From Shigella phage vB_SflM_004: 64,000 nt of DNA. Location of the stretch: the sequence record MK295205; one strand, written 5' to 3'. Numbering within the stretch: position 1 is the stretch's first letter; each line of letters opens with the position of its first letter. The notes under the pieces were generated by a model. That model had not been told where the DNA came from and did no database searches. It saw only the letters and a list, made by a program, of their open reading frames with translations. Below, in pieces: positions 25,569 to 64,000 of this stretch. Position numbers and translations under genes: made by a program.

Positions 25569-25751
25569 TTGAAGTTCAACTGCAATGTGCTGGATATTCT
25601 CAAAGTGAGATTGAGGCTATGTGCATCATCATTTGCAGTAGCCATAAGCACCTCAAGCTTTCCAGAAATTCGTCTTAAGGTTGATATTTTTATTGCTGGA
25701 GGTAAGATTATCAAGGATAAGACAGGCTACCTTAAAGGTGAACGTCTATGA
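25569..25751 (+). CDS. hypothetical small protein
   Basis: 60-aa ORF (TTG start in track), stop overlaps next ATG (ATGA); C-terminal KIIKDKTGYLKGERL recurs in diverged copies at 40650 and 45830. Confidence 0.35.
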   Translation: MKFNCNVLDILKVRLRLCASSFAVAISTSSFPEIRLKVDIFIAGGKIIKDKTGYLKGERL

Positions 25752-25957
25752 GCCATCGTGGAAGAACTCATCTTGCCATGATGCAAGGTGCTTCAAAAGA
25801 GACTATCAAGAATCGGAAGAAAACTCTTTTTGACAGAATGAATAGACTCATTGATAATGCAAGCCTACCTAACTCTGAAAAGGTTTTCTTGAAAGGGAAT
25901 CTGAAGAGTATTGCACAGGAACTTATTGACATTGAATTTTGGAGACACCAAAAATGA
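25748..25957 (+). CDS. hypothetical small protein
   Basis: 69 aa; diverged copies of its 5' end with its RBS occur at 36520 and 40265. Confidence 0.45.
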   Translation: MSHRGRTHLAMMQGASKETIKNRKKTLFDRMNRLIDNASLPNSEKVFLKGNLKSIAQELIDIEFWRHQK

Positions 25958-26205
25958 CATACGCAGACGTTATTCAGCAACTTCACGACAACTGCTATAC
26001 CCCAGAGTTGATTCAGGAGATGTGTATTGTAGTGATGCCTAGCAAGTTCGTAAAAGCCTTTAGAAATGAAAATTTCACATCTGATGAGTTCTTTGAAATA
26101 AAAGACGGAAAGGTTGTATGTGAAATGGGTTACCCAATGGCTGCATGGTACAAGGGGGAACCTTGGCAGAAAACTGGATGGAGTATCTTTAATGAAACTT
26201 TATAG
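25954..26205 (+). CDS. hypothetical small protein
   Basis: ATG with GGAGACA SD, ATGA overlap with upstream stop; contains [11 protein letters not shown] segment repeated at 39573 and 40571. Confidence 0.45.
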   Translation: MTYADVIQQLHDNCYTPELIQEMCIVVMPSKFVKAFRNENFTSDEFFEIKDGKVVCEMGYPMAAWYKGEPWQKTGWSIFNETL

Positions 26206-26335
26206 CATTTGGGGAAGAGTTGGTGAAGGTTATGACTGGACTCTTCTTAAAACAAATGTTAAAAGTAACGAGATAGCTTACTACAAAATCTATTACCATA
26301 AAACTTTTAGAGAGGTAGAGTATCGTGAGCAATAA
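26192..26335 (+). CDS. hypothetical small protein
   Basis: internal ATG (MKLYSIWGRVGEGYDW) with GGATGGAG SD. Confidence 0.3.
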   Translation: MKLYSIWGRVGEGYDWTLLKTNVKSNEIAYYKIYYHKTFREVEYREQ

Positions 26336-26804: not shown

Positions 26805-27011
26805 ATGCAGGTTCTTGTAAATTTTATCTATAAGTATGAAAACATCTTCAGTAACATGACTGTAGCACAACGTAATCCTGTTATACCACGAGAAGGAAAA
26901 AAGGCAGGAAATTATAGTTGGAACTACAAAGTTGAAGAAGTCAAACACAAATTCAAAGATGGTTATGACCACCAAGTTGTAAATGTGTATTTAAAAGGTA
27001 AGTGGCAATGA
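26805..27011 (+). CDS. hypothetical protein
   Basis: ATG (MQVLVNF) with GAGGAT SD. Confidence 0.4.
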   Translation: MQVLVNFIYKYENIFSNMTVAQRNPVIPREGKKAGNYSWNYKVEEVKHKFKDGYDHQVVNVYLKGKWQ

Positions 27012-27397
27012 GTGAAAAAAGGTTATTCAAAGAGTCCTACAGTAATCTGAAGATGGGTTATCAAGGCTACTCAATACCTTGGTATGAAGATAAGAAAAAA
27101 CAGTATTCAAACCCTTTTATATATCAACCTGTAAAACTCTCTGTACTGGAGTTTTGGCATGAAACTGGAGCTACGCCATACCAATTTGACAACATGGAAT
27201 ATGCGCGTATTTGTAAAAGTCTTGGTGCAAGACAAGTTGATAATATCATTGAACATTTGAAGGATTTGTATAAAGATTTTGCTGGATACTTATACGAGAA
27301 ACAGTTTGGGGAGTGCTTAAAATACCCAGATGGGCACTCGTTTTTCACAAAAGGTTGTCTTAATGGTAACATAAAAATTGCATACAAAGGCTTGTGA
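27008..27397 (+). CDS. hypothetical protein
   Basis: ATGA start/stop overlap with upstream ORF; 129 aa. Confidence 0.45.
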   Translation: MSEKRLFKESYSNLKMGYQGYSIPWYEDKKKQYSNPFIYQPVKLSVLEFWHETGATPYQFDNMEYARICKSLGARQVDNIIEHLKDLYKDFAGYLYEKQFGECLKYPDGHSFFTKGCLNGNIKIAYKGL

Positions 27398-27507
27398 GGC
27401 ACGTAATATGATTTTTATACTAGATTGAGACTACCATACCCAGATAGCTCCTTTTCCTTATCTAGCAATGCAATGACGCACTCTGGGAATATTGTTTCTG
27501 TTGAAAA

Positions 27508-28114
27508 ATGATAAACACAGATGGTCACAAGTCTGTTCAGTTATTGCTTGATGGTAAAGGCTACCAAGCTAACCGTCTAGCAATACTATATGTGGATGGA
27601 TACCTGCCTGATAAAACCTTAGAGCGTAATGCTGAACAGCAAGCTCCAGGTTGACCATAAGAATGGAGATGGTTGGGACAATAGGTCCAAGATAAGTCAT
27701 AAGAAATATTTGAAGTTCCCTGCTGACGCTCAACTTAAATTTAAGGGTTTCGTTGCAGGATTTCAAGAGATGCTGACTCAGAAAGCTTTTACAGCATATT
27801 CTCGTGAGAACACGGTATACAACATTCCTATAGAGTTGATTCCTGATGTTCTTCTTATGCTGAAACTGCACAAAGATGTTGAGGATTTCGATGGTGAGAT
27901 TTATGCTCATGGTTGGGACTTAGAAGATATTGTTTCGATGATTAAGAATGCTGACAATCCAGACCGTCACCTTCTTAAATTCTACTGGTATGATATCTGT
28001 GACAAGACTAAATCTTGGCCTGAGCGTCGTGAAGTTTCACCATTGTACAGCTTCACAAAACTCTTGCAATCGGTCAAGAAAGAAAACTCCTTCAACGAGT
28101 GTTGTCACCGTTAA
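27508..28114 (+). pseudogene. disrupted HNH-type endonuclease
   Basis: N-terminal fragment (GYQANRLAILYVDGYLPDKT) in one frame and HNH motif VDHKNGDGWDNR in another; junction coincides with a 25-bp fragment also present near 45760. Confidence 0.4.
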
Positions 28115-28137
28115 TACTCCGGGATTAAGCAAGATGC

Positions 28138-28147
28138 ACGGGGGGGG
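28138..28147. repeat. G10 homopolymer
   Basis: cacggggggggggtt; ten consecutive G in an otherwise AT-rich intergenic stretch. Confidence 0.8.
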
Positions 28148-28494
28148 GGTTAAATTAAAGTAACTGGTGTCAAAACTGATAAACGTGGTCATGGTAAGTT
28201 CGTTGTAGAGACTCTTCCTAACGTCCCTATCTGGGTTGCCAAAAGGTGTACAGAAGATAAGTAAAAGCCCTGAAGAGTTTATCGGGAAACCTTTAACTGT
28301 TCAGTTCCAGAAGATGAGTTTCGAGCAATGATACGTTTATTATCATTGGCTTACTTCACAAGTAAACTCTTAAGTATAACATACAAAGCCAAGGTAAAAA
28401 CTATCATCTTGGTATGTTTGACACACCGTAACTGACTTAGAAAATTTGGTGAGTATACTGAGCATCATAAACCAACGGGTACTCACCAACATCA

Positions 28495-35957: not shown

Positions 35958-37553
35958 TTAGACCCGATGGGTTTGCATTTCCACTTCTCAATACTAGTTC
36001 ATTTTTGCAAAACTAAGTTGAACCAACGTTGAAACCTGTACCACCATAGAGTCTTAAAGTTGCTGTTGATGGTGTTTGTGGCATTGTTACAGTAGCAATT
36101 TTCACCCAACCACTGTCATAAGTTGTTGCATTCATAGCAGTAGCTCTTGAGAATACAGTATTAGCAACACTTTGTGTGTAGTACCTTGCATCAAAGTTAG
36201 ATACATCTGTAGGGATAACTTGACCTTCAACTCTTAAAGGTTTATTGAGATAAGCTACATCCCTTAACTCTAGATATGTATTCACTGACAAGGTGCTCAG
36301 GGAAGAGTACCTTAGTCTGCTACCTTCACCGTTACCAACATACCAACGTCGCATCAGTACTATCTTTTGCAATAACCCCGTTGCTATTCATTGGCTGGGT
36401 AGCTGTCCCACTTTGCAATGTGAAAGCAGCATCTGTAGTAACAATAGTTTGAGCACCTGTGAAAGTGTTTGCAGAGTTATTTCTTGCAAGACTACTTAAT
36501 AAAGAGCTTACAATATCTTATATAGGAGGACTTATGAGCCACCGTGGAAGAACCCATGCAGCGATGATGAAAGGTGCTTCAAAGGAGACACCAGATGAGT
36601 AGAGTCTCATAGTTGCACCTGTCATCTGGTTAAACAAGTTAACATCCTGCTTAGTCCCATCAGGTTGACCAAGATACCAAGACTCTGAACCAGAACCTGC
36701 GTAGGCTTGAACAAATACTGCACCGTTTGCTGTAGCTGGTTTCAATCTAAGCAAAGACCCATCAGAAATAATTGTCTGATAGTTTGTGAAGTTGTTTGCA
36801 CCTGAGAAGGTATTATTTTCAGTTAGTCTTGCAAATCTTTGGTCAGCAGCTATCAAAAATCGTAAGCAGAAGTTGTTTGAGAGAATGAACAGGTTAATTG
36901 ACAATTCATCTCTTTCAGGTTCTGAGAAGGTTTTTAACTAGGGAACCGGTCTTGTTGTTGTAGAAAATAACATCGTCACTTCCGAATCATTACCTACATA
37001 CCACCTATTAGCTCCAGTACTATCCTGGCTACAATAGCGGAGTATGCCTCACTTGCACCAGCAGGGGTCTTCAGTGTCATAGCTTCACCATTTGCTTGAA
37101 TAACTTGTTGGGAGGTAAAGATGTTATTTGCAGCTAGTCTTGAGTATCTTGCATCATTTTCCTCATTTGTTCTCATACCTAATTCATTAGGAGATGGTTT
37201 ATTAAGTGTGTGATAAACTGTTGCAGACCTTGAAGCATCTGCAATAGTTAGTCTAAGACCGTTTGAGTTAATTTTAAATCTTGAAAGGTAATCTGAAAAG
37301 CATTGCACAAGAACTTGTAGAATAAATCTTTTCCACCGTAAGTTAACTTAACAATACCCAGATTACCTGTCATATTCCCGCCAGCTAATTGCAAGAATCT
37401 TTCAAGTCTGAATGAAGCTAAGAAATTTGCATAGGTCATTTTACGGTCTTCATCACCTAGCATATCAGACCTTTTAATTACTCTCAAATGTAATAGGTCG
37501 TCTGAGCGAACTGTATCAATTGTGTTTAGTTCACTTAGTTTGTATTCAGCCAT
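35958..37553 (-). pseudogene. tail fibre gene N-terminal and central portions, fragmented
   Basis: N-terminus MAEYKLSELNTIDTV...LAGGNMTGNLGIVKL at 37553, then pieces in different frames (36994-37308, 36518-36904, 36013-36372) interleaved with three foreign fragments at about 36520-36595, 36840-36935, 37275-37315. Confidence 0.5.
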
Positions 37554-37598
37554 TTATCAATCCTCTTTATAGGGGCTGTGTAGCCCCTTTATAAATTT

Positions 37599-38788
37599 TT
37601 AAGCAACTCTCTTCCACACATAAACAACATAAGATGGTTGTTCAACACTGAAAGCTTGTCCACCACCAGATGCACCAGTTGTACCTGAGTGAGTGTGCTC
37701 AGAAGATTGAACTGTCACAGTACCACTGTGTGTATGTGAACCAATACCGACTGTGTGGCTGTGAGCACCAATACCGACTGTGTGGCTGTGGTCACCGGAT
37801 GCACCAGATGTAACATCTCCAATCGTCACAACGTGAGAGTGGTCACCTGCCCCATAAGTTGGTTGTGACGCATTACCAACACCTGCATCAGCCGTTGCCG
37901 TAATAGCATTCACACCACGTCCACCAACGTTCTGTACAAGAGCTTGGTGAGTGTGATTGCCAGAGTTGTTTGTATTCCTTGAACCATAGTCAAAAGTACT
38001 GGTATACTTAGTTCCATAGTCAAAGTCACTTGTAGATTTTGTACCATAATCAAACACACTCGTTGTCTTATTTCCGTGGTCGAAACTTGAAGCTGACGCA
38101 CTATTACCATGCGTGTGTCCACCACCAGTTAACAATACAGAGTGTGTGTGACTTGGAATGTTATTTTGAGAAAGTGCTACAGATGCACTACCAAAATTAG
38201 TTTCAACTGGTCTTGTGTCAGAATCATAACCAACTAATGCTCTACCTTTAGAGACAAGTTCCCAAGTACCACCACAAAGTAAATATGTAGATGGGTTTGC
38301 AGGGTTAACTGACAAATGGATAGTACCAATTGGGTAACTATTCTGGATAGCTCTATAAAGAGCATTCACAGCTTTTGCAGTAGCATACTTATCAGCATCT
38401 TCAGAGTAAGAGTTTGAATAAGTCCAGTATTGAATATTGGAGACATCTACCTGAATCTTGTTAGTATTGTGAGGGTTGTTCTTATCATTGATGTGGTTCT
38501 GAATAAGAGTATTAACTTCATCACTTGATAGAATATTAAGGTTCTGCCTAGCCTCTTCAACACTAACCACGTCTGACAAGTTATTAGCAGCCATTAATTG
38601 GAGTGCGTTAACAACATTACCAAGTTCTACGTGAACCTTTGTAACGCCGTGTGGGTTATTTCTTAAAGATGCGTGTGGAGCAAGTAATTGCTCAAGTGTG
38701 CAACGCTTATCCTCAAAAAAATGACACTTGTGTCAATAGGTAAAGAGGCTTGAGGCAATGCACTAATTTGAATTTCACCAACTGCCAT
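37599..38788 (-). CDS. tail fibre protein (frameshift at A7 tract)
   Basis: N-terminus from ATG at 38788 (MAVGEIQISALPQASLPIDTSVIF) continues in +1 frame after plus-strand A7 run at 38715-38721 into ...NNLSDVVSVEEARQNLN... and His-rich C-terminus; track reports only 37599-38594. Confidence 0.6.
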
Positions 38789-38790
38789 TA

Positions 38791-39189
38791 TTAGCTCCCT
38801 TTATATTCGTATGTGTAAAGGTTAGTCGTGCTAGTGGGTGCAGTTCCTGTTACTGTGTCAATTAATTCCCAACCATTGGAAACTAAATCAGGTTGCTCCG
38901 TAGCAAATGAACGAACCTCTCCAACCGTACCATTTACTTTGTTAAGCAAATAGTTAATAATATAGTTAAACCACTGGCGACCCATAGGCTCTCCCCTTAA
39001 TAGGCCAGTGGCTTGAATTTCTGGAGGTGGTAATACTTTAAGCTGGTTACTCCCTTCTTGTTGTGATTTATCTTTTCTACCTTTGACGATTTGAGCAACT
39101 TCTGCCATAATACCATAATCGCCACCAGTTACCATTTCTTTACCAGCAATAAAATAGTCACTGCTATTGTTTGTCTTGCTGACTTTCAT
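38791..39189 (-). CDS. hypothetical structural protein
   Basis: 132-aa ORF directly upstream of tail fibre gene. Confidence 0.4.
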
Positions 39190-40244: not shown

Positions 40245-40750
40245 TTATACAATATCTTATATAGGAGGGCTTATGAGCCACCGTGGAAGAACCCATGCAG
40301 CGATGATGAAAGGTGCTTCAAAGGAGACTATCAAGAATCGTAAGCAGAAGTATTTCAAATGTGGTGTCATCTGTTGTTACTTTATTCTTTTGAGATGTTT
40401 GAGAGAATGAACAGGCTAATTGACAATTCATCTCTTTCAGGTTCTGAGAAGGTTTTCTTGAAAGGTAATCTGAAAAGCATTGCACAAGAACTTATTGACA
40501 TTGAGTATTGGAGACATCAAAAATGACACTTGCAGACGTTATTCAGCTCCAGAGTTAATTCAGGAATGTCCATTGTAGTCATGCCTAGCAAGTTCGTAAA
40601 AACCTTTAACAACGACGCTTTAAGGTCTACACACATCCTTATCGTGATTGCAAAAGACCGTACTGGAGTACTCAAAGGTGAACGTATTGATATTCTGGAG
40701 TCTGGGGAAGTGTTGGTAAAGGTTTTGACTGGACACTTCTTCGTGATTCC
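40245..40750. repeat. degraded mosaic copy of the small-gene cassette at 25700-26260
   Basis: colinear ~85 percent identical segments including the RBS and start of the 25748 gene, the SEKVFLKGNLKSIAQELIDIE segment, VVMPSKFVK segment and KDRTGVLKGERI segment, with internal indels. Confidence 0.7.
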
Positions 40751-45407: not shown

Positions 45408-45418
45408 GCTAAGAGAAA

Positions 45419-45610
45419 ATGAACAAAGAAGATAAGCATAAAAATGCTGTACGAACTCCTGATGGAAAGGTTCAATCCTTCATCCTGACAGTTGGTGGAA
45501 AACCGTTTCGTTGCCACTGCGGAGCAAACTGTTTTCATAAACCAGATAAAAATGATTTAGAGCTTTACGCATGTAATGCTTGCAATACTTGGTATCACTC
45601 AGAGGAATAA
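45419..45610 (+). CDS. hypothetical Cys-rich small protein
   Basis: 63 aa, CHCGANCF...CNACNTW; its 3' part recurs at 49420-49470. Confidence 0.35.
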   Translation: MNKEDKHKNAVRTPDGKVQSFILTVGGKPFRCHCGANCFHKPDKNDLELYACNACNTWYHSEE

Positions 45611-45885
45611 AATGACAATACTGTACAAACAAAATAAAGATGGCTCTTTTAACATCTGGTCATGTACTGCTGTAGGTGACAAGGTTATTACAACCTCGGT
45701 AAAGAAAATGGCAAGATGAAGAGTATACAGCAGAACCTAAAAACATCGGTAAAAAGAATGAGCGTAACGCTGAACAGCAAGCTCTCTTTGAAGTTGCTGC
45801 TAAGTATAAAAAGCAGGTTGACCGCTAAGATTGCAAAAGACCGTACTGGAGTACTCAAAGGTGAACGTATTGATATTCTGGAGTT
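45540..45885. repeat. chain of short fragments copied in order from loci at 49420-51960 and 40640
   Basis: exact or near-exact 23-50-nt matches to 49420-49470, 49725-49750, 50105-50135, 51185-51235, 51428-51455, 51925-51958, 40640-40695, in the same order. Confidence 0.7.
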
Positions 45886-45888
45886 GCT

Positions 45889-46158
45889 ATGAAGAAAATG
45901 TACAGTCTCTGGGGAAGTATTATGTGGAAAGCAGTAATTGCGCTTGGTGTTGTTTTTCTATCTGGCTGCAACCCTTCTTATGAAGATAAAAATGCTTCTT
46001 ACAGTCTCCCACCAGAGATGCAAGATTGCAGAGTATACAAGTTACATGGTGATGCTATAAGCAGAGATATTGTTGTTGTCAGATGTCCAAACTCCCAAAC
46101 AACAACATCTTATAGCTATGGCAAAAATGGTCAATCACACACTACGGTTATTGAGTGA
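45889..46158 (+). CDS. putative lipoprotein
   Basis: signal peptide with lipobox VFLSGC; 89 aa; degraded paralog at 26590-26763. Confidence 0.5.
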   Translation: MKKMYSLWGSIMWKAVIALGVVFLSGCNPSYEDKNASYSLPPEMQDCRVYKLHGDAISRDIVVVRCPNSQTTTSYSYGKNGQSHTTVIE

Positions 46159-46699
46159 GGTTTTTTCTATCAAGAACTCGATACTGCTTCTCTGAAAGAT
46201 TTGCAAACTTACAGAAACGACGAACAAAACGCATGTGTCGTGATTTTACTCGTGGTAACCATTTTGCTGCCAGAGCAGACGTGTTAGGGTCTAACAGTGC
46301 AGCTTCTAAATGCTTGAAAGCATCTGTTTCGTAACGTGTACCAACAAAGATTTTGAAGTCGTCGTAACGACCTAAGTCAGAAATCTTATCCATGATACGC
46401 AATACTTGGAACTCATCAAGTATACCATCAGAGATTGCCTTGGTAAGAGTATAACGGAACGCTTTGCGCTCTCCCATACCTTCTCGTGCATCTCGCATGT
46501 GTAACAGGATTCGAACTGCTACATCAATGTCTTCTCGCATAGCCTTGTAAAACAAGTTTGGAAGACTCTCTACATTTGACCTGCTTGAACCAGCAGCTTT
46601 GTAGAAATCTACCAGTGCAGACATTGAAGAGGTGTGGTTAACAGCACCGTTTTCAGTTAAACCTGCATGTAGATGCGAGTGTTTAAATAATTCGCTCAT
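46148..46699 (-). CDS. hypothetical protein (possibly N-terminal fragment of a larger gene)
   Basis: 183 aa; GLTENGAV...RILLHMRDAREGMGERKAFR is reminiscent of TROVE/DUF2828-type N-termini (weak, from memory); ORF ends where the lipoprotein block begins. Confidence 0.35.
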   Translation of the reverse strand: MSELFKHSHLHAGLTENGAVNHTSSMSALVDFYKAAGSSRSNVESLPNLFYKAMREDIDVAVRILLHMRDAREGMGERKAFRYTLTKAISDGILDEFQVLRIMDKISDLGRYDDFKIFVGTRYETDAFKHLEAALLDPNTSALAAKWLPRVKSRHMRFVRRFCKFANLSEKQYRVLDRKNLTQ

Positions 46700-48994: not shown

Positions 48995-49139
48995 GAGAAA
49001 ATGACTGTAGAAGATGACACAGTTTATTGTGAATGGTTGGCAAGGGTTAAACCTTTCTCCATGCTTAATGCAAAATTTAAGAACGCAATCACACCTCCAG
49101 TTCTTACAGAACAACTGACCAAACTGATGGTGAGCTTGA

Positions 49140-49470
49140 AACATTCATTCTTCGTGTTGATGGTACTGGTGCAACTGGTTATCAGTGGAAGAAAGGTGCA
49201 TCAAACATCTCTGGAGCAACCTCTGCAACATATACTAAGAATGGCGTAGTCCCTACTGATAGCTATTCCGGTGTCGTTGTGGGTCAAACTGTTTCTCCAA
49301 CACTGCTACAGTAACTGTGAATGCACTGCCTGTGATTACACAGCAACTAACCAAGAGATTACAGAGGGAGATACACTTACCCTTAGTATTGTAGCAACTG
49401 GTGCAACTGGTCACAAACCAGATAAAAATGACTTAGAGCTTTACGCATGTAATGCTTGCAATACTTGCAT
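49140..49470 (+). pseudogene. fragments of an Ig-like domain protein
   Basis: out-of-frame pieces DGTGATGYQWKKGASNISGATSATYTKNG and TVNALPVITQQLTNQEITEGDTLTLSIVATGATG typical of bacterial Ig-like repeats; no intact ORF. Confidence 0.4.
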
Positions 49471-49512
49471 CTCAATCTTCCAAGGTAGTTATTAATGCAG
49501 TAGGAGCATAAA

Positions 49513-49957
49513 ATGCAACTCTCAAGTAAAGGCTTAGAAGCCATTAAGTTCTTTGAAGGGTATCACTCAGAGGTTAAAAATGACAATTCTGTAATCCCTA
49601 CAATTGGTTATGGTACAATTCGTATCAACGGAAGACCTGTTACGATGGGGATGAAGATTACTGCCGAGCAAGCTGAACAATATCTCCTTGCAGATGTTGA
49701 GAACTATGTAGGTGCACAAACAAAATAAAGACGGCTCTTTTAACGTAGAATGAGTTTGATGCACTTGTTGTAGAGACTTACAACATTGGCATCGGTGCTA
49801 TGCAGGATTCAACTTTTATCAAGCGTCATAATGCTGGTAACAAAGCTGGTCATGCGCAGTGGTGGAACAAGATTACAGTGAATGGTCAAAAAGTAACTTC
49901 CAAGGGTCTACAAAATAGACGTAGTTTGGAAGCCAAGATTTACCTTGACGCTGTTTA
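49513..49957 (+). pseudogene. lysozyme (GH24 type) interrupted at 49720-49750
   Basis: N-terminus LEAIKFFEGY...PTIGYGT...ITAEQAEQYLL in frame 1; conserved C-terminus (NEFDALVVETYNIGIGAMQDSTFIKRHNAGN...) resumes in another frame after a ~27-nt foreign segment that recurs near 45630. Confidence 0.55.
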
Positions 49958-49974
49958 TCCAAAATAGTAGATTA

Positions 49975-50005: not shown

Positions 50006-50416
50006 ATGGAGAAAACTATGAAACTTTGGGCTGATGATGTTGGGACTTTTAAGTACACAAGAAGTGGTATGAAGGTTCGTATTGCAGGAACCAAGTTGAT
50101 TGCTGTAGGTGACAAAGTTATTACAACCTTTACTGTAGAGCTTGTTGAGCTGTCGCCTATCACAATGGCTAACAAAGGCTTCTTTGCTGGTGAACTGTAC
50201 AACGTGGATGACAATGGTATGTTCTCACCTTTAGGTGAAAGTTCTCTTGATATTATTTCAGAACACCCCTTGACAAGAGAGCAGTTATCAGGTTACTATA
50301 AATTTCTACTTGAGAAGCAGAAGGAAGTACACAATCGTGAGGCTATTTACCATAACAATGAGTGTATCAAACTTCTGGATAAAATTGAGAAAGCTGAGAG
50401 AGGTTTTTATGAATAA
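50006..50416 (+). CDS. hypothetical protein
   Basis: 136-aa ORF. Confidence 0.45.
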   Translation: MEKTMKLWADDVGTFKYTRSGMKVRIAGTKLIAVGDKVITTFTVELVELSPITMANKGFFAGELYNVDDNGMFSPLGESSLDIISEHPLTREQLSGYYKFLLEKQKEVHNREAIYHNNECIKLLDKIEKAERGFYE

Positions 50417-57640: not shown

Positions 57641-57936
57641 TATTAGATAACTTTCTTATAAGAGTTACCAGATAAGATATAGTTAGTAACTGAGTGATTT
57701 AGTAAGTCTACACCAGTGATAACTACCGTTTCTTCATTTTTTCTTTCTTCGTGCTCTTTTTTCATCTCTTCCTAACGTCTAGCACCAAATTTACTAATCA
57801 TACGCTGTTCAAAATTCATCTTTCTAGTCTCCAGTTTAGGAATTTAGGTTAGTGGGGAAGTCTCCCTCCCCGTTGAAAGTAATATTAATTCATTGCGGCG
57901 TATGTTGCAAGTCTTTTGTAGATGTCTCATGGAAGA

Positions 57937-58149
57937 CTACTCATGAGAAGAAACAGTATACTTTACAATTGCTTCAGATTTAGTTAGACCAAAATGGCTT
58001 ACGATTTCACCATTCATGAATCCAACTACCTCATAAGATTCTGCGATGATTTCCCCGTTAAACCAGTCACTTTCTATACGTTTGCAAAGTTGGATATCTT
58101 CTTTGTCAGTACCAATCTGTAACAGGATAGTGATTTCTGCGTTATTCAT
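57937..58149 (-). CDS. hypothetical small protein
   Basis: 70 aa. Confidence 0.45.
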   Translation of the reverse strand: MNNAEITILLQIGTDKEDIQLCKRIESDWFNGEIIAESYEVVGFMNGEIVSHFGLTKSEAIVKYTVSSHE

Positions 58150-58214
58150 TTCATAACTCCAGTTTAGGACTTTATTTAGTGGGGAAGGTTATTCCCTCCC
58201 CGTTGATGAGTACT
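58150..58214 (-). promoter_or_regulatory. conserved promoter/leader element, copy
   Basis: minus strand: TTGACG, 17 nt, TAAAGT, then hairpin CGGGGAGGGA..TCCCC, then CCTAAACTGGAG SD region and ATG. Confidence 0.55.
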
Positions 58215-58742
58215 TTATAGAGTTCTGATGATTTCGTCAAGCTCTTTTTCCATATCTTTTACAGATTTTTCGTGTAGTTTAATCATATCATTCAATGCTT
58301 GCCCTAACTGTAAGTTAAAATCACTGTCTTTTGTCTCGCTTAGATAGATGTTTTCTACGTCGTAAAGCTTGCAAGGGTGGCAACCTGTACCCATCGCCAT
58401 AATCCCATGTGCCAACGGCATGATATACATGTTATGGGACTTGATAGAGCGCTCATAAGCCATTTTAAAGCGGTTTAACTCTTCTTTTGATGATTTGATG
58501 CAATGTTCACAAAGTTCTGCGACTAGTGCCATAAAATCAGGGAGGATTGTTGCAACAGCTTGCATAAAGTTTTCTGCTGTTACTACCTTAACGTTTTGGC
58601 GATGTACATAATACTTTTTATCTTGTCCCTTAGTGACAACAGCAAACAATTTATCGTTGCAACGAAATTCGAAAGTGTCTTTTACAGGTTTAGTCATTAC
58701 AGCATTAGAGCGGATATGGTTGATTGCTTGAAACTTATTCAT
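58215..58742 (-). CDS. hypothetical protein
   Basis: 175-aa ORF. Confidence 0.45.
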   Translation of the reverse strand: MNKFQAINHIRSNAVMTKPVKDTFEFRCNDKLFAVVTKGQDKKYYVHRQNVKVVTAENFMQAVATILPDFMALVAELCEHCIKSSKEELNRFKMAYERSIKSHNMYIMPLAHGIMAMGTGCHPCKLYDVENIYLSETKDSDFNLQLGQALNDMIKLHEKSVKDMEKELDEIIRTL

Positions 58743-58807
58743 TTTAGATTCTCCAGTTTAGGAATTTTGTTTTAGTGGGGAAGTCTCCCTCCCCGTTGAT
58801 GAATACT
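58743..58807 (-). promoter_or_regulatory. conserved promoter/leader element, copy
   Basis: minus strand: TTGCAA, 17 nt, TAAAGT, hairpin GGGGAGGGAGACTTCCCC, CCTAAACTGGAGAATCTAAAATG. Confidence 0.55.
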
Positions 58808-58948
58808 TTACTTGTTTTGATTCTGTATTGCAAGTAGTTTTTTATCAAAAAGTTTATCTGAGATTTCACCAATGGTGAGCATTGCTAATGGCAACACAAC
58901 AGAAACAATCATACCGCAAAGGATAGGGTTTTTAATGATATCTAACAT
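58808..58948 (-). CDS. small hydrophobic protein (below track cut-off)
   Basis: 46 codons MLDIIKNPILCGMIVSVVLPLAML...; ATG immediately follows the conserved leader. Confidence 0.35.
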   Translation of the reverse strand: MLDIIKNPILCGMIVSVVLPLAMLTIGEISDKLFDKKLLAIQNQNK

Positions 58949-59144
58949 TTAGTGATTCTCCAGTTTAGGAAGTTGCCTTTTGAAGATACTATATAGAATT
59001 GCTTAGTGTCTTGCAAGTACTTTTTTCGCTTATCTATAAAGAATCTTTTAAGTGAATCCCTTTTAGATAAACCCCCTCGAACAAATCTATCAATGTCAAG
59101 GGGTATTGTCAACAGTTTTTTCAAAGATTTTTGTAAGTCATTGA

Positions 59145-59486
59145 TTAGCTTATAAAGATTTTTTCTGGCTTAACGTAGGTTAATGCTTGTTTTTTAAGCA
59201 AATCAGACCAAATCAAAGCGGCAATGTGACTATAGCCCTTTTCTCTTAGTTCCCGCATAGCTTCTTTGCGAGTCTCAAAACGTGTAGCATAGTGTTCAGT
59301 GTTAAGGGTAGTTTTGTTGCCGTCATTGTCAACATGTACAACCTGCATTACTTGGAAAGGGCTTACATCTTCCCCCCTGTTCCATTGCTCAAAGTATTTG
59401 AGGCACTGCATAGGTGTCATTTTGTCGCTAACCTGAGTAGACCAAGACGAATTTTCTTTATCGGTGATAATTGTTACATAGGCCAT
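59145..59486 (-). CDS. hypothetical protein
   Basis: 113 aa. Confidence 0.45.
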   Translation of the reverse strand: MAYVTIITDKENSSWSTQVSDKMTPMQCLKYFEQWNRGEDVSPFQVMQVVHVDNDGNKTTLNTEHYATRFETRKEAMRELREKGYSHIAALIWSDLLKKQALTYVKPEKIFIS

Positions 59487-59571
59487 TTTCAGATTCTCCA
59501 GTTTAGGATTGTTGGTAAAGCTCTTTATCTGGGGCTTAAGATACTAGCTTTTAAACCCCATGTAAAGCACT
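59487..59571 (-). promoter_or_regulatory. conserved leader element, copy
   Basis: CCAACAATCCTAAACTGGAGAATCTGAAAATG with upstream hairpin GGGGTTT..AAGCCCC. Confidence 0.5.
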
Positions 59572-59769
59572 TTAATAAATTCTATCCATCAGATTATTCA
59601 CGGCCATAATTGCATTATCTTTGAAGTGTGGATGACTGCTATTCTGTGAGAATAGTATTTCTCCATTGTATACTATTTTTAGGTCTATCTTTGAACCTTC
59701 CATGTTAAGGTTACACTCTACACCTTTTAAACACCACAAGGTAGAAAGTTTTTGCATCAGTGATAACAT
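59572..59769 (-). CDS. hypothetical small protein
   Basis: 65 aa. Confidence 0.4.
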   Translation of the reverse strand: MLSLMQKLSTLWCLKGVECNLNMEGSKIDLKIVYNGEILFSQNSSHPHFKDNAIMAVNNLMDRIY

Positions 59770-59860
59770 TTTAGATTCTCCAGTTTAGGATTGTTGGTAA
59801 AGCTCTTTATCTGGGGCTTATCTTATCTAACTATAAACCCCATGTAAAGTACTTTATTAG
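59770..59860 (-). promoter_or_regulatory. conserved leader element, copy
   Basis: near-identical to the 59487-59571 copy. Confidence 0.5.
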
Positions 59861-60397
59861 TTATTTGTAGTAATAATATGTAAACTCATTTATCAGGCTT
59901 CCATCCTCATCATTATACTGCTTATGACTAGCCAGATAACCGCCATTAGCTAGAATTTCATCAATCAACTTTTTAGCGTCATCGTTGGGAATCCTAACAG
60001 GTTTACTAAACGGCTGTAAATAGGTACGACGAACATTTGAGAATTTAAAATCAATGGTTTTTACGTTAAGAACTTGCAACATTTTTTGAATCTCCAGTTT
60101 AGGATTGTTGGGATGTTTCCCGTTGATGAATACTTTACTTTCTTGCGCAGTCTTCAAGTGATTCTGGAAAACACCATAATCATGAGTCCTTTTATTTTCT
60201 AACATGACACCTAATTGTGACTCTTGTAAGGCTATAGCTGCTAAAGGGATTCCCCAACCTTTTCCCATCTGTCCTTCGCCATAGTTATATGCTTTTAACA
60301 TATTTACTTTCTGACTGATTGTAAGTTCTGGACAGTCAGATGCTGTAGCTAAATGTGCTGTAAAGAATAAGCACAAACCTAAAACAAATTTCTTCAT
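59861..60397 (-). CDS. secreted protein with lytic transglycosylase-like motif
   Basis: signal peptide MKKFVLGLCLFFTAHLATA; AIALQES...GVFQ resembles SLT-domain catalytic motif; a copy of the conserved leader lies in frame inside the ORF at about 60083-60130. Confidence 0.45.
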   Translation of the reverse strand: MKKFVLGLCLFFTAHLATASDCPELTISQKVNMLKAYNYGEGQMGKGWGIPLAAIALQESQLGVMLENKRTHDYGVFQNHLKTAQESKVFINGKHPNNPKLEIQKMLQVLNVKTIDFKFSNVRRTYLQPFSKPVRIPNDDAKKLIDEILANGGYLASHKQYNDEDGSLINEFTYYYYK

Positions 60398-60458
60398 TTG
60401 CACTCCTATTTTGTTAAACATGCAGACAATTATACATCATCCTGCACATTTTTCAAAT

Positions 60459-61691: not shown

Positions 61692-61708
61692 ACTCCTTGT
61701 CAAATACT

Positions 61709-64000
61709 TTAATCGTAAATTGTAGTCCCTTCTGGAACACACTTCACATCAAAGCCTAAGAACTTACTCACTTCGATGGGTGACACTTTATTCCAATCTA
61801 AATGAGAAAGCAAGAAGTTTTCTTGTTTTCTTTTTGAAAGGTAGTTTGTCACCTTAATAACCATACGGTCACCAGCTTTCTTAATTTTCTTGTACAGCTT
61901 TGTATCATTGTCAAGGCACTCTTTCAAAGTTTGCAACCGACTAATAGTGTAAGTGTATGCAAACTGTGCAGCAACGTATTGGATTTTACCGAACATTGCC
62001 TCTACAGCCTCTTCATTACCTTCTAGGAAGATAGTTTTGTTTGTATCCCGTGAATAGCAATAACCACGAGAAATCTTCCTATTATTGAATGTAAAGTTTC
62101 TGGCAATAATCCAGCTACTTGTAAGGTCAAGAACACCATTCATGTAGATGCGTGTCATATACCTGTTATGATTAATCCAATGAACATCAGTTAAGCTGTC
62201 GTTCAAGAGCTTCTCATCTACTTCAATCCAGTCTTCTGGTATCTTTTTCCAATTTGCTTTTCGGAAAACATAGACTGTCTTCCCAATAACATTAGCAACT
62301 GACTTAGCTACATCCTCTGGAGATGAGCAAAAACATCTACCATCAACTGTGTCACCTACTGCCTTAATATAAAGCTGAGACTCTTCAATTGTGTCTAAGT
62401 CCTCTGACACCTCTTTGTAGGAGGCTACACCTTCTGCTGGAACAGCTTTCCAGAGTTTTACAACACCTCTTACAGCTTCTTTACGCTGGTAATGGTGTTC
62501 CTTATCAGACATTTTCACAATCTTTAACAAGCTTTTATCAAGTTTGTGCAGATTGATTAAGTCATCTAACTCTTTTTCAGTCGAGAATACAAACACAATA
62601 CCATTGTATCTGTGAAACAGGCTTGACTCACTGGCGTAGTCTCGACATGCACCACGCAGAATCTGATTGCGGCCTACAGTCTTCTCAGTTCCGTTTTTAT
62701 TGCGACGGTCATTAATCACAAACAAAAACTGTTCAATTTGGCTTTTACGCATTGCACCAAAGATATTGAACATGCTCGCCTCTTGAGTGTAGGAAAGTGC
62801 TGTTGCACGAATCTTACTCTCTAAAGAGTTGAACTTAACATAAGCAACTGGATTGTATAGGTAGTCCACTTTAGGAATGTTGTTTCCTTTACTGTCAACC
62901 TTAATATTACCTTTGCCGTCACGTTCATAGATGACTGAGCCGTCTTCTGCGTAGATAATTCCACGACGAATGTTTAACAATTCTTCTTCCAGAGAGTCAA
63001 GCTTAACACCTCCCCACTCTAGCTTTGGACACACAGCATTAAACATCTCTCGTGAGTTCAAACGTAACTCTGCATAAGCCTGTGCAGCATCCATAAGTGT
63101 AGGTTGGCTATTAACTCCCTTAATAACATCCCTTGTAATTGCTTCAGTTATCTTTTTGGTAGCCTCAATGATGACATTTTTTGTCGTGTCATTCATCTGC
63201 AATGCTTCACGAGAAGCTGCAATAGCGACTGAACCAATAGGCATGTAGATGTTTACAAGGTCTACGCTCCTACGGAAAAATTCTGGCAAGATTTTGAAGA
63301 AATCATCACCAAGTAATGCTTCCATGTTAACAGGGTAGGCAATGTTACCCATCACCACATTAAATTCTGTCCTGTTACCACTAGAACGCCAGCTTTGCTT
63401 ATGAATCATGGCATCATAAACACCCTCTTCACGGGCAATGACGTTCATATCTGCTAATACATCGTCGTACACAATATTACTTTCTGGTTTTACAGCAAAG
63501 TATGAGTACACATTCCCAGCTTCTTCAAAGAACTTTGAGATACGGTGGTCAGCAACTGCCACACGTACAGCTAAACCATTAGGTTCTTTTGTTGGGTTAG
63601 TTGTCAGCTTAGTTACTTGAGGAATACCATTCTCAAGATAAACAGAGTACTTATTAACAACACCATCAACATAGCTAGATACTGTGAATGACTGAGCAAT
63701 TGCAAATGGTGACTTTGAGCCGATACCCATTGCACCAATGTAATCATTAGAGTCATTCTTCGTAGAAGCTCCGTAGTTCAGATACAAACTCATAACTTTA
63801 TCATGAGTCAATCCAGTTCCAAAATCACGAACTTCGAAGTAAGGCTCAAAACGAGTAGGTAAATGCACATGGAATGGGATGTTCTCTTTTCCAGCTTCTT
63901 TCTGAGCATCTACTGCGTTACATGACAGTTCACGAATCACTGCTCGCTCTTTAAATGTATATACACCAGAACTCAGAAGGCTGAACATTTCAGGTGTCAT
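61709..64000 (-). CDS. rIIA: rIIA-like protein (N-terminus beyond window edge)
   Basis: GHKL-type ATPase motifs near the N-terminal end (ELSCNAVDA, VRDFGTGL, GAMGIGSKS) as in T4 rIIA; ORF is open to the window boundary. Confidence 0.75.
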   Translation of the reverse strand: MTPEMFSLLSSGVYTFKERAVIRELSCNAVDAQKEAGKENIPFHVHLPTRFEPYFEVRDFGTGLTHDKVMSLYLNYGASTKNDSNDYIGAMGIGSKSPFAIAQSFTVSSYVDGVVNKYSVYLENGIPQVTKLTTNPTKEPNGLAVRVAVADHRISKFFEEAGNVYSYFAVKPESNIVYDDVLADMNVIAREEGVYDAMIHKQSWRSSGNRTEFNVVMGNIAYPVNMEALLGDDFFKILPEFFRRSVDLVNIYMPIGSVAIAASREALQMNDTTKNVIIEATKKITEAITRDVIKGVNSQPTLMDAAQAYAELRLNSREMFNAVCPKLEWGGVKLDSLEEELLNIRRGIIYAEDGSVIYERDGKGNIKVDSKGNNIPKVDYLYNPVAYVKFNSLESKIRATALSYTQEASMFNIFGAMRKSQIEQFLFVINDRRNKNGTEKTVGRNQILRGACRDYASESSLFHRYNGIVFVFSTEKELDDLINLHKLDKSLLKIVKMSDKEHHYQRKEAVRGVVKLWKAVPAEGVASYKEVSEDLDTIEESQLYIKAVGDTVDGRCFCSSPEDVAKSVANVIGKTVYVFRKANWKKIPEDWIEVDEKLLNDSLTDVHWINHNRYMTRIYMNGVLDLTSSWIIARNFTFNNRKISRGYCYSRDTNKTIFLEGNEEAVEAMFGKIQYVAAQFAYTYTISRLQTLKECLDNDTKLYKKIKKAGDRMVIKVTNYLSKRKQENFLLSHLDWNKVSPIEVSKFLGFDVKCVPEGTTIYD

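Follow-up and report, generated by a model that had tools for sequence, protein, structure and literature searches.

The lysozyme gene at positions 49513-49967 of the window, that is, the whole stretch of 64,000 nucleotides analyzed here, is broken into two halves that lie in different reading frames. The window is very probably a chimera that was put together computationally from several real genomes of Felix-O1-like phages (Ounavirinae), with the broken lysozyme gene as a by-product. The evidence comprises three lesions in this gene that come from one donor region, an ordered series of similar overwrites that extends well beyond it, and the mosaic state of the sequence in which they lie.

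The split endolysin gene and its donor

The window is Felix-O1-like phage sequence (Ounavirinae), and around the lysozyme gene the nearest public genomes are those of Mooglevirus phages, for example Shigella phage Sf17. The gene at 49513-49967 (plus strand) is a split GH24 endolysin gene that is homologous to Sf17 gp017, which is annotated as an endolysin. In the relatives this gene is 465 nt long and codes for 154 amino acids, and an alignment shows it at 465 nt and free of indels in four of four relatives from two genera. The Sf17 gene aligns with the window gene from end to end, with 362 of 366 positions (98.9%) identical outside of the three lesions. The features of the gene, and of the stretches that share its donor, are as follows:

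49415-49467, plus strand: preceding donor tile (ULIM8 38087-38139), in the 3' portion of the gene for the Ig-like tail protein, where about 70 nt are lost
49513-49728, plus strand: N-terminal open reading frame of 71 codons, with a premature TAA at 49726-49728
49559-49593, plus strand: first overwrite, 35 nt for 35 nt, in frame (ULIM8 38139-38173)
49716-49744, plus strand: second overwrite, 29 nt for 30 nt, a -1 frameshift (ULIM8 38173-38201)
49746-49748, plus strand: TAG in the C-terminal frame, at a conserved Gln codon (CAG or CAA in all relatives)
49749-49967, plus strand: C-terminal half in the other frame (NEFDALVV...YPK, then a stop)
49851-49856, plus strand: third lesion, TG to CA at 49851-49852 and a 9-nt deletion between 49855 and 49856
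50101-50129, plus strand: next donor tile (ULIM8 38216-38244), within the gene that follows the endolysin
45625-45653, plus strand: second copy of the 29-mer of the second overwrite (28/29), in its native reading context, the ligase N-terminus MTILYKQNKDGSFNIW

An earlier note on this DNA had proposed that the N-terminus and the conserved C-terminus of a GH24 lysozyme are both present, and the family profile PF00959 (Phage_lysozyme) bears this out. Specifically, the open reading frame at 49513-49728 matches profile positions 2-52 (37.9 bits, E 2.5e-09) and the frame at 49749-49964 matches positions 66-125 (46.2 bits, E 6.8e-12), so that both halves pass the gathering cut-off of 22.3 bits. Profile positions 53-65 are lost from the window gene. 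The intact Sf17 homologue scores 135.4 bits on the same profile, and the closest solved structure to it is PDB 7m5i, entitled 'Endolysin' (E 8.5e-86). GH24 enzymes carry their catalytic Glu, Asp and Thr in the N-terminal lobe with the spacing E-x8-D-x5-T, by analogy with the T4 and P22 lysozymes. Direct reading of the N-terminal open reading frame places E15, D24 and T30 in FFEGYHSEVKNDNSVIPT, though residues 17-27 have been overwritten and D24 is kept by coincidence only. The note was also right that the frame is shifted and a stop introduced, as the N-terminal half ends at the TAA and the C-terminal half lies in another frame behind the TAG. No single open reading frame in the window covers both lobes (TAA at 49726, -1 frame change, TAG at 49746) and the gene as written is unable to yield a full-length enzyme.

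The first overwrite changes LRLEAYKDSAG to YHSEVKNDNSV, and when the patch is anchored on Sf17 it spans 36 nt in the window and 36 nt in Sf17, a difference of 0. The 35-mer consists of the end of a zinc-ribbon gene plus the start codon of a DNA ligase gene, and it also matches 45591-45625 of the window (31/35). The 29-mer of the second overwrite corresponds to codons 5-14 (YKQNKDGSFN) of the Felixounavirus DNA ligase gene, and the two oligomers are contiguous in phages VpaE1 and ULIM8. At the third lesion the substitutions are consistent with ULIM8 at about 38204-38212 and the deletion removes the codons for AEA. Thus, the donor coordinates of the three lesions are consecutive (ULIM8 38139-38173, 38173-38201 and about 38204-38212), and the donor of all three is the junction between the zinc-ribbon and DNA ligase genes of Felixounavirus (ULIM8 38139-38212).

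These results change how the segment between the two lysozyme halves is to be described. It had been taken as about 27 nt that separate them and recur near 45630, but 29 nt in fact replace 30 nt, a net change of -1 nt. The recurrence holds for the 29-mer at 49716-49744, which is found again at 45625-45653 in 28 of 29 positions against a chance expectation of 0. It does not hold for the 27-mer proposed (49722-49748), which is displaced 6 nt from the true repeat and is unique in exact form and with three mismatches allowed. The segment is foreign as claimed, coming from a DNA ligase gene, yet it is a same-length overwrite rather than an insertion and it is not specific to this locus. The count of lesions was likewise incomplete, with the second overwrite seen and the overwrite at 49559-49593 and the substitutions plus 9-nt deletion from 49851 onward missed. 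Overall, the earlier observation is partly confirmed and its interpretation partly supported; the interruption of the endolysin is not a real biological feature.

The gene is the same one that codes for other GH24 endolysins of the Felix-O1 type (Sf17 gp017 'endolysin', ULIM8 'lysin', PDB 7m5i), and like them it is located downstream of an Ig-like tail protein gene and has the same flanking terminator. In the window copy, by contrast, 11 residues close to the catalytic Glu have been replaced, the region of the inter-lobe helix carries a frameshift together with the TAA and TAG, and three codons are deleted. Group I introns and other mobile insertions interrupt some lysin genes of Staphylococcus and Streptococcus phages, and two conserved halves parted by unrelated sequence give the window gene a superficial likeness to these. 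However, an intron, intein or mobile element would leave net extra sequence relative to uninterrupted homologues, and here 29 nt take the place of 30 nt; the segment is also far too short for an intron or IS element and is coding sequence of another gene.

The earlier note further claimed that the only lysozyme in the window appears inactive. The endolysin indeed lacks a single open reading frame and no second muralytic gene in the window is demonstrably intact, although there is a gp050-like open reading frame at 59861-60421. This minus-strand frame has 62% amino acid identity over 85% coverage to Sf17 gp050, a 'putative lysin, lysozyme-like domain', and the homology stops where the base track of the window jumps, at 60148.

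A track of ordered overwrites in a mosaic sequence

When ULIM8 36.7-39.4 kb was searched against the window, matches of 16-90 nt were recovered that together form a donor track:

36291-57959, plus strand: extent of the donor track, about 50 short patches spelling ULIM8 36672-39143 in order
45410-45824, plus strand: longest donor piece (ULIM8 37958-38380, 97%)

Many of the patches are 100% identical to ULIM8, all are on the plus strand, and each starts at the ULIM8 position where the previous patch stopped. The track restarts at window positions 40249/40272, 45826 and 47845, and about 30% of it was not recovered as detectable patches. The longest piece holds the zinc-ribbon gene (45419-45610) and the first 70 or so codons of the DNA ligase (from 45612), and is flanked by a head-protease gene and an RNA-binding-protein gene, both of them truncated. 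It begins a module at 45410-46161 in which the ligase part is followed by a condensed second copy of the upstream small genes (ULIM8 37299-37390 and 37550-37756).

The patches replace sequence rather than add to it. Among the 39 patches that could be anchored on Sf17, 30 are equal in length to what they replace within 3 nt (24 of them exactly) and none is a net insertion. Patch and replaced sequence are 58.5% identical without gaps, as compared to 26% at random positions. At 40-45 kb these plus-strand patches cross capsid, sheath and protease genes that are on the minus strand. No off-diagonal donor patches occur in window 0-24 kb, and a search for further donor tracks found none beyond ULIM8 36-40 kb, with the remaining off-diagonal matches belonging to a natural intergenic repeat family. 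An origin of the patches within the window, from the copy of the region that precedes them there (25746-26335), was rejected given that this copy is only 87-92% identical as compared to the 98-100% identity of the patches to ULIM8.

Two of the restarts share a leader. An identical 20-mer, ACAATATCTTATATAGGAGG, that resembles a promoter or RBS is present at 36510-36529 and at 40249-40268, in both cases directly 5' of a donor-track restart and of the same ATG (MSHRGRTH...). ULIM8 carries only a 17/20 version of this 20-mer, at 36702, before a different gene that is located just after the DNA polymerase gene.

The sequence that underlies the patches is itself a composite. Its intact parts are limited to 1-25.5 kb and 60-64 kb. 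Positions 2-26335 run colinearly with ULIM8 11731-37508 at about 95% identity, and about 72-75% of the substitutions there affect the third position of a codon. Of the 31 genes in the first 25.5 kb, about 30 are intact, with 96-100% amino acid identity. The parent then switches, with Felixounavirus-like ends (1-25500 and 61700-64000; ULIM8/ULIM3, 95-96%) surrounding a Mooglevirus-like middle (25500-61700) whose relatives are Sf17, Sf15 and Moogle. At 25.56-26.5 kb, stretches that are 98-100% identical to Sf17 enclose a 120-nt island that is ULIM8-like. Between about 25.5 and 61.7 kb, the base sequence breaks up into at least 20 pieces relative to any real genome, and the base track switches among at least four real Ounavirinae relatives every 50-500 nt. 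Exact runs with Sf17 reach 586 nt in this track. In places where identity to the best relative is no more than 83-84%, perfect runs of at least 50 nt still hold 47-59% of the bases, a share that is expected to be about 0% if divergence is evenly spread; the low-identity blocks between the perfect runs are matched at homologous positions by other relatives (ULIM8, Sf17).

Large blocks are also absent. These correspond to Sf17 35464-28957 (baseplate and tape measure), 22664-11804 (head genes, portal, terminase and the tRNA cluster) and 87868-79158 (spanins and early genes), with block junctions at window positions of about 40240, 45409, 46170 and 60148. Thus, terminase, portal, tape measure, baseplate and spanins are missing from the window, and ARAGORN found no tRNA in it where relatives carry 20-26. 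Most genes of more than 150 amino acids at 26-60 kb are split over two to eight pieces in two or three frames, or are truncated, as scored per gene by tblastn. (Gap runs from blastn together with codon positions were merely suggestive, with compensating gaps adding noise.) The whole window nevertheless circles the Sf17/ULIM8 map once and ends about 230 nt short of its start. A natural Ounavirinae genome has a complete colinear gene set with intact open reading frames, and the window has neither. Its sequence does not appear to be that of a faithful natural genome, as far as this can be judged from the letters. The fine mosaic that it forms, drawn from at least four real genomes, does not make a viable phage, as no phage can propagate if it lacks terminase and portal.

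Origin of the overwrites

It is highly likely that the lysozyme lesion does not record a biological event at that locus. The comparisons show a base layer of Mooglevirus-type sequence at 25.5-61.7 kb, switching among relatives and lacking large blocks, and a second template that is written over it in short consecutive pieces. The second template is the part of the Felixounavirus genome that comes directly after the DNA polymerase gene, with its small genes, zinc-ribbon gene and DNA ligase, and each piece covers an equal length of base where the two sequences are about 58% alike. Three consecutive pieces lie in the endolysin gene, of which one is a base short and gives rise to the frameshift and TAA, and the edge of this second overwrite turns the Gln codon into TAG. 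Such a pattern may come from merging a poor global alignment column by column, or from taking its consensus, when the tail of a short sequence has been spread over a long partner to which it is not homologous. The smeared tail would form islands of 55-60% identity, and the merged output would take the smeared residues wherever they are present.

We infer that overwriting which is of equal length, guided by similarity and strictly ordered would match the output of such an alignment merge. Reference-imputed or consensus artefacts, as well as sequences from generative models, resemble the window in their column-wise, ordered substitutions of equal length placed by similarity, and also in being a fine mosaic of real relatives in which frames and whole blocks are lost. 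However, the restarts and shared leader are not obviously predicted by a simple merge of two sequences, and a pure alignment merge alone explains neither the small deletions, that of 9 nt among them, nor the three restarts, nor the leader ACAATATCTTATATAGGAGG. An alternative in-silico source is a generative sequence model that blends memorised relatives, which would more easily explain the small deletions and the repeated restarts, with the same leader, at the sequence that comes after the polymerase gene.

A chimera that arose at the bench or during assembly is unlikely as the source. In this case a Felixounavirus and at least one Mooglevirus would have been sequenced together and stitched by template-switching amplification or by a graph or long-read assembler. 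The blend of at least four real relatives fits with such an origin, as do the missing large blocks, which could be produced by concatenated contigs. However, de Bruijn and overlap assemblers switch at shared k-mers or overlaps and do not generate equal-length overwrites of 16-90 nt that lack long shared junctions, and chimeric amplification joins fragments with no return to the register of the first template. Note that this explanation overlaps with the computational chimera in that the feature is non-biological in both.

It is quite improbable that the gene is a genuine pseudogene, formed by ectopic gene conversion or replication template switching in a real Felix-O1-like element that is decaying or defective. 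In its favor, real phages are the source of donor and recipient sequence alike, the window has a copy of the donor 4 kb upstream, and the patches are at sites where donor and recipient have some similarity. However, homologous or homeologous conversion uses extended identity far above the 58.5% over 20-50 nt that is observed here, and independent conversions would not produce about 50 events in strict donor order that each resume at the end of the last. Essential genes on either coding strand are struck, terminase and portal are absent, and there is no decay between the patches, where exact runs extend to 586 nt. Felix-O1-like phages are also strictly lytic, and no resident degenerate copy is expected in them. 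Extremely unlikely is a real defective or engineered Felix-O1-like element in which some templated process copies the post-polymerase/ligase module piecewise and in order over similar sites across 22 kb; if true, this would constitute an ordered, register-preserving replacement of patches that is without known precedent.

Finally, programmed recoding, in which the endolysin would be made through a frameshift near A-AAA-TAA plus read-through or Gln reassignment of the TAG, can point to a third frame (...NKIKTALLT*NEFDAL...) that has the TAG exactly on the conserved Gln codon and keeps the overall length, but it has next to no probability and is effectively refuted, in that the ten intervening codons are ligase sequence unrelated to the VNRAIKVPTT conserved in all relatives, profile positions 53-65 are lost, every relative has a plain open reading frame with no frameshift or stop here, neither a suppressor tRNA nor any other tRNA is present in the window, and residues 17-27 and three more codons are also changed or deleted. 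The related possibility, that the segment codes for a true part of the lysozyme in a different frame and its TAG stands for Gln, was rejected by the alignment with the relatives and ULIM8, which identifies the segment as ligase sequence.

As regards the public record, the lysozyme junction is absent from the phage, viral-contig, metagenome and genome collections that were searched, an absence that does not prove a synthetic origin. As a positive control, an unaltered 51-mer of the endolysin gene retrieved two Mooglevirus genomes. When the assembly index was searched for exact products, neither the 71-amino-acid lysozyme frame nor the DNA polymerase of the window was on record.

The second overwrite is one of about 50 ordered tiles over 22 kb, within a frame-broken stretch of 35 kb, and we therefore draw no biological conclusion that a gene has been inactivated by a foreign insert. 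The endolysin locus likewise supports no inference on loss of a lysis gene, pseudogenisation or mobile DNA. The other anomalies at about 25.5-61.7 kb, which include frameshifts, short repeats that distant genes have in common, truncations, 'missing' essential genes and duplicated ligase fragments, most likely have the same origin, and they should be disregarded as long as the source of the sequence is not validated.

Neighboring and accessory regions

Directly upstream of the endolysin, the Ig-like tail protein gene at 49001-49512 (homologue of Sf17 gp018) is also frame-broken. It has deletions of 4, 6 and 10 nt in addition to the 53-nt patch at 49415-49467 and the loss of about 70 nt, and lies in four to six pieces in three frames.

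The window's own ligase at 27686-28354 is fragmentary as well, with 68-70% coverage and 53-56% amino acid identity. Adjoining it is a stretch at 26955-27686 that is absent from both Sf17 and ULIM8. The possibility that 27.0-27.7 kb is invented sequence was rejected upon finding a 96% match to two hypothetical genes of Sf15, 3HA14, ESh20 and SFPB. After this stretch there is a piece that resembles a homing endonuclease gene, which is on the opposite strand in some Felixounaviruses. The 26955-27686 stretch, adjacent to the ligase, is probably a site where accessory or mobile genes naturally occur. Pfam gave no match for the two open reading frames at 27.0-28.1 kb, for the zinc-ribbon open reading frame or for the one at 59861-60421.

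Lastly, the region at about 57800-60150 contains a family of intergenic repeats of about 60-100 nt (for example 59484-59575 and 59767-59866), which have numerous matches in the early-gene regions at the genome ends of Sf17 (83-90 kb and 0-1 kb) and of ULIM8. The family appears to be genuine to these phages and to lie outside of the artefact.
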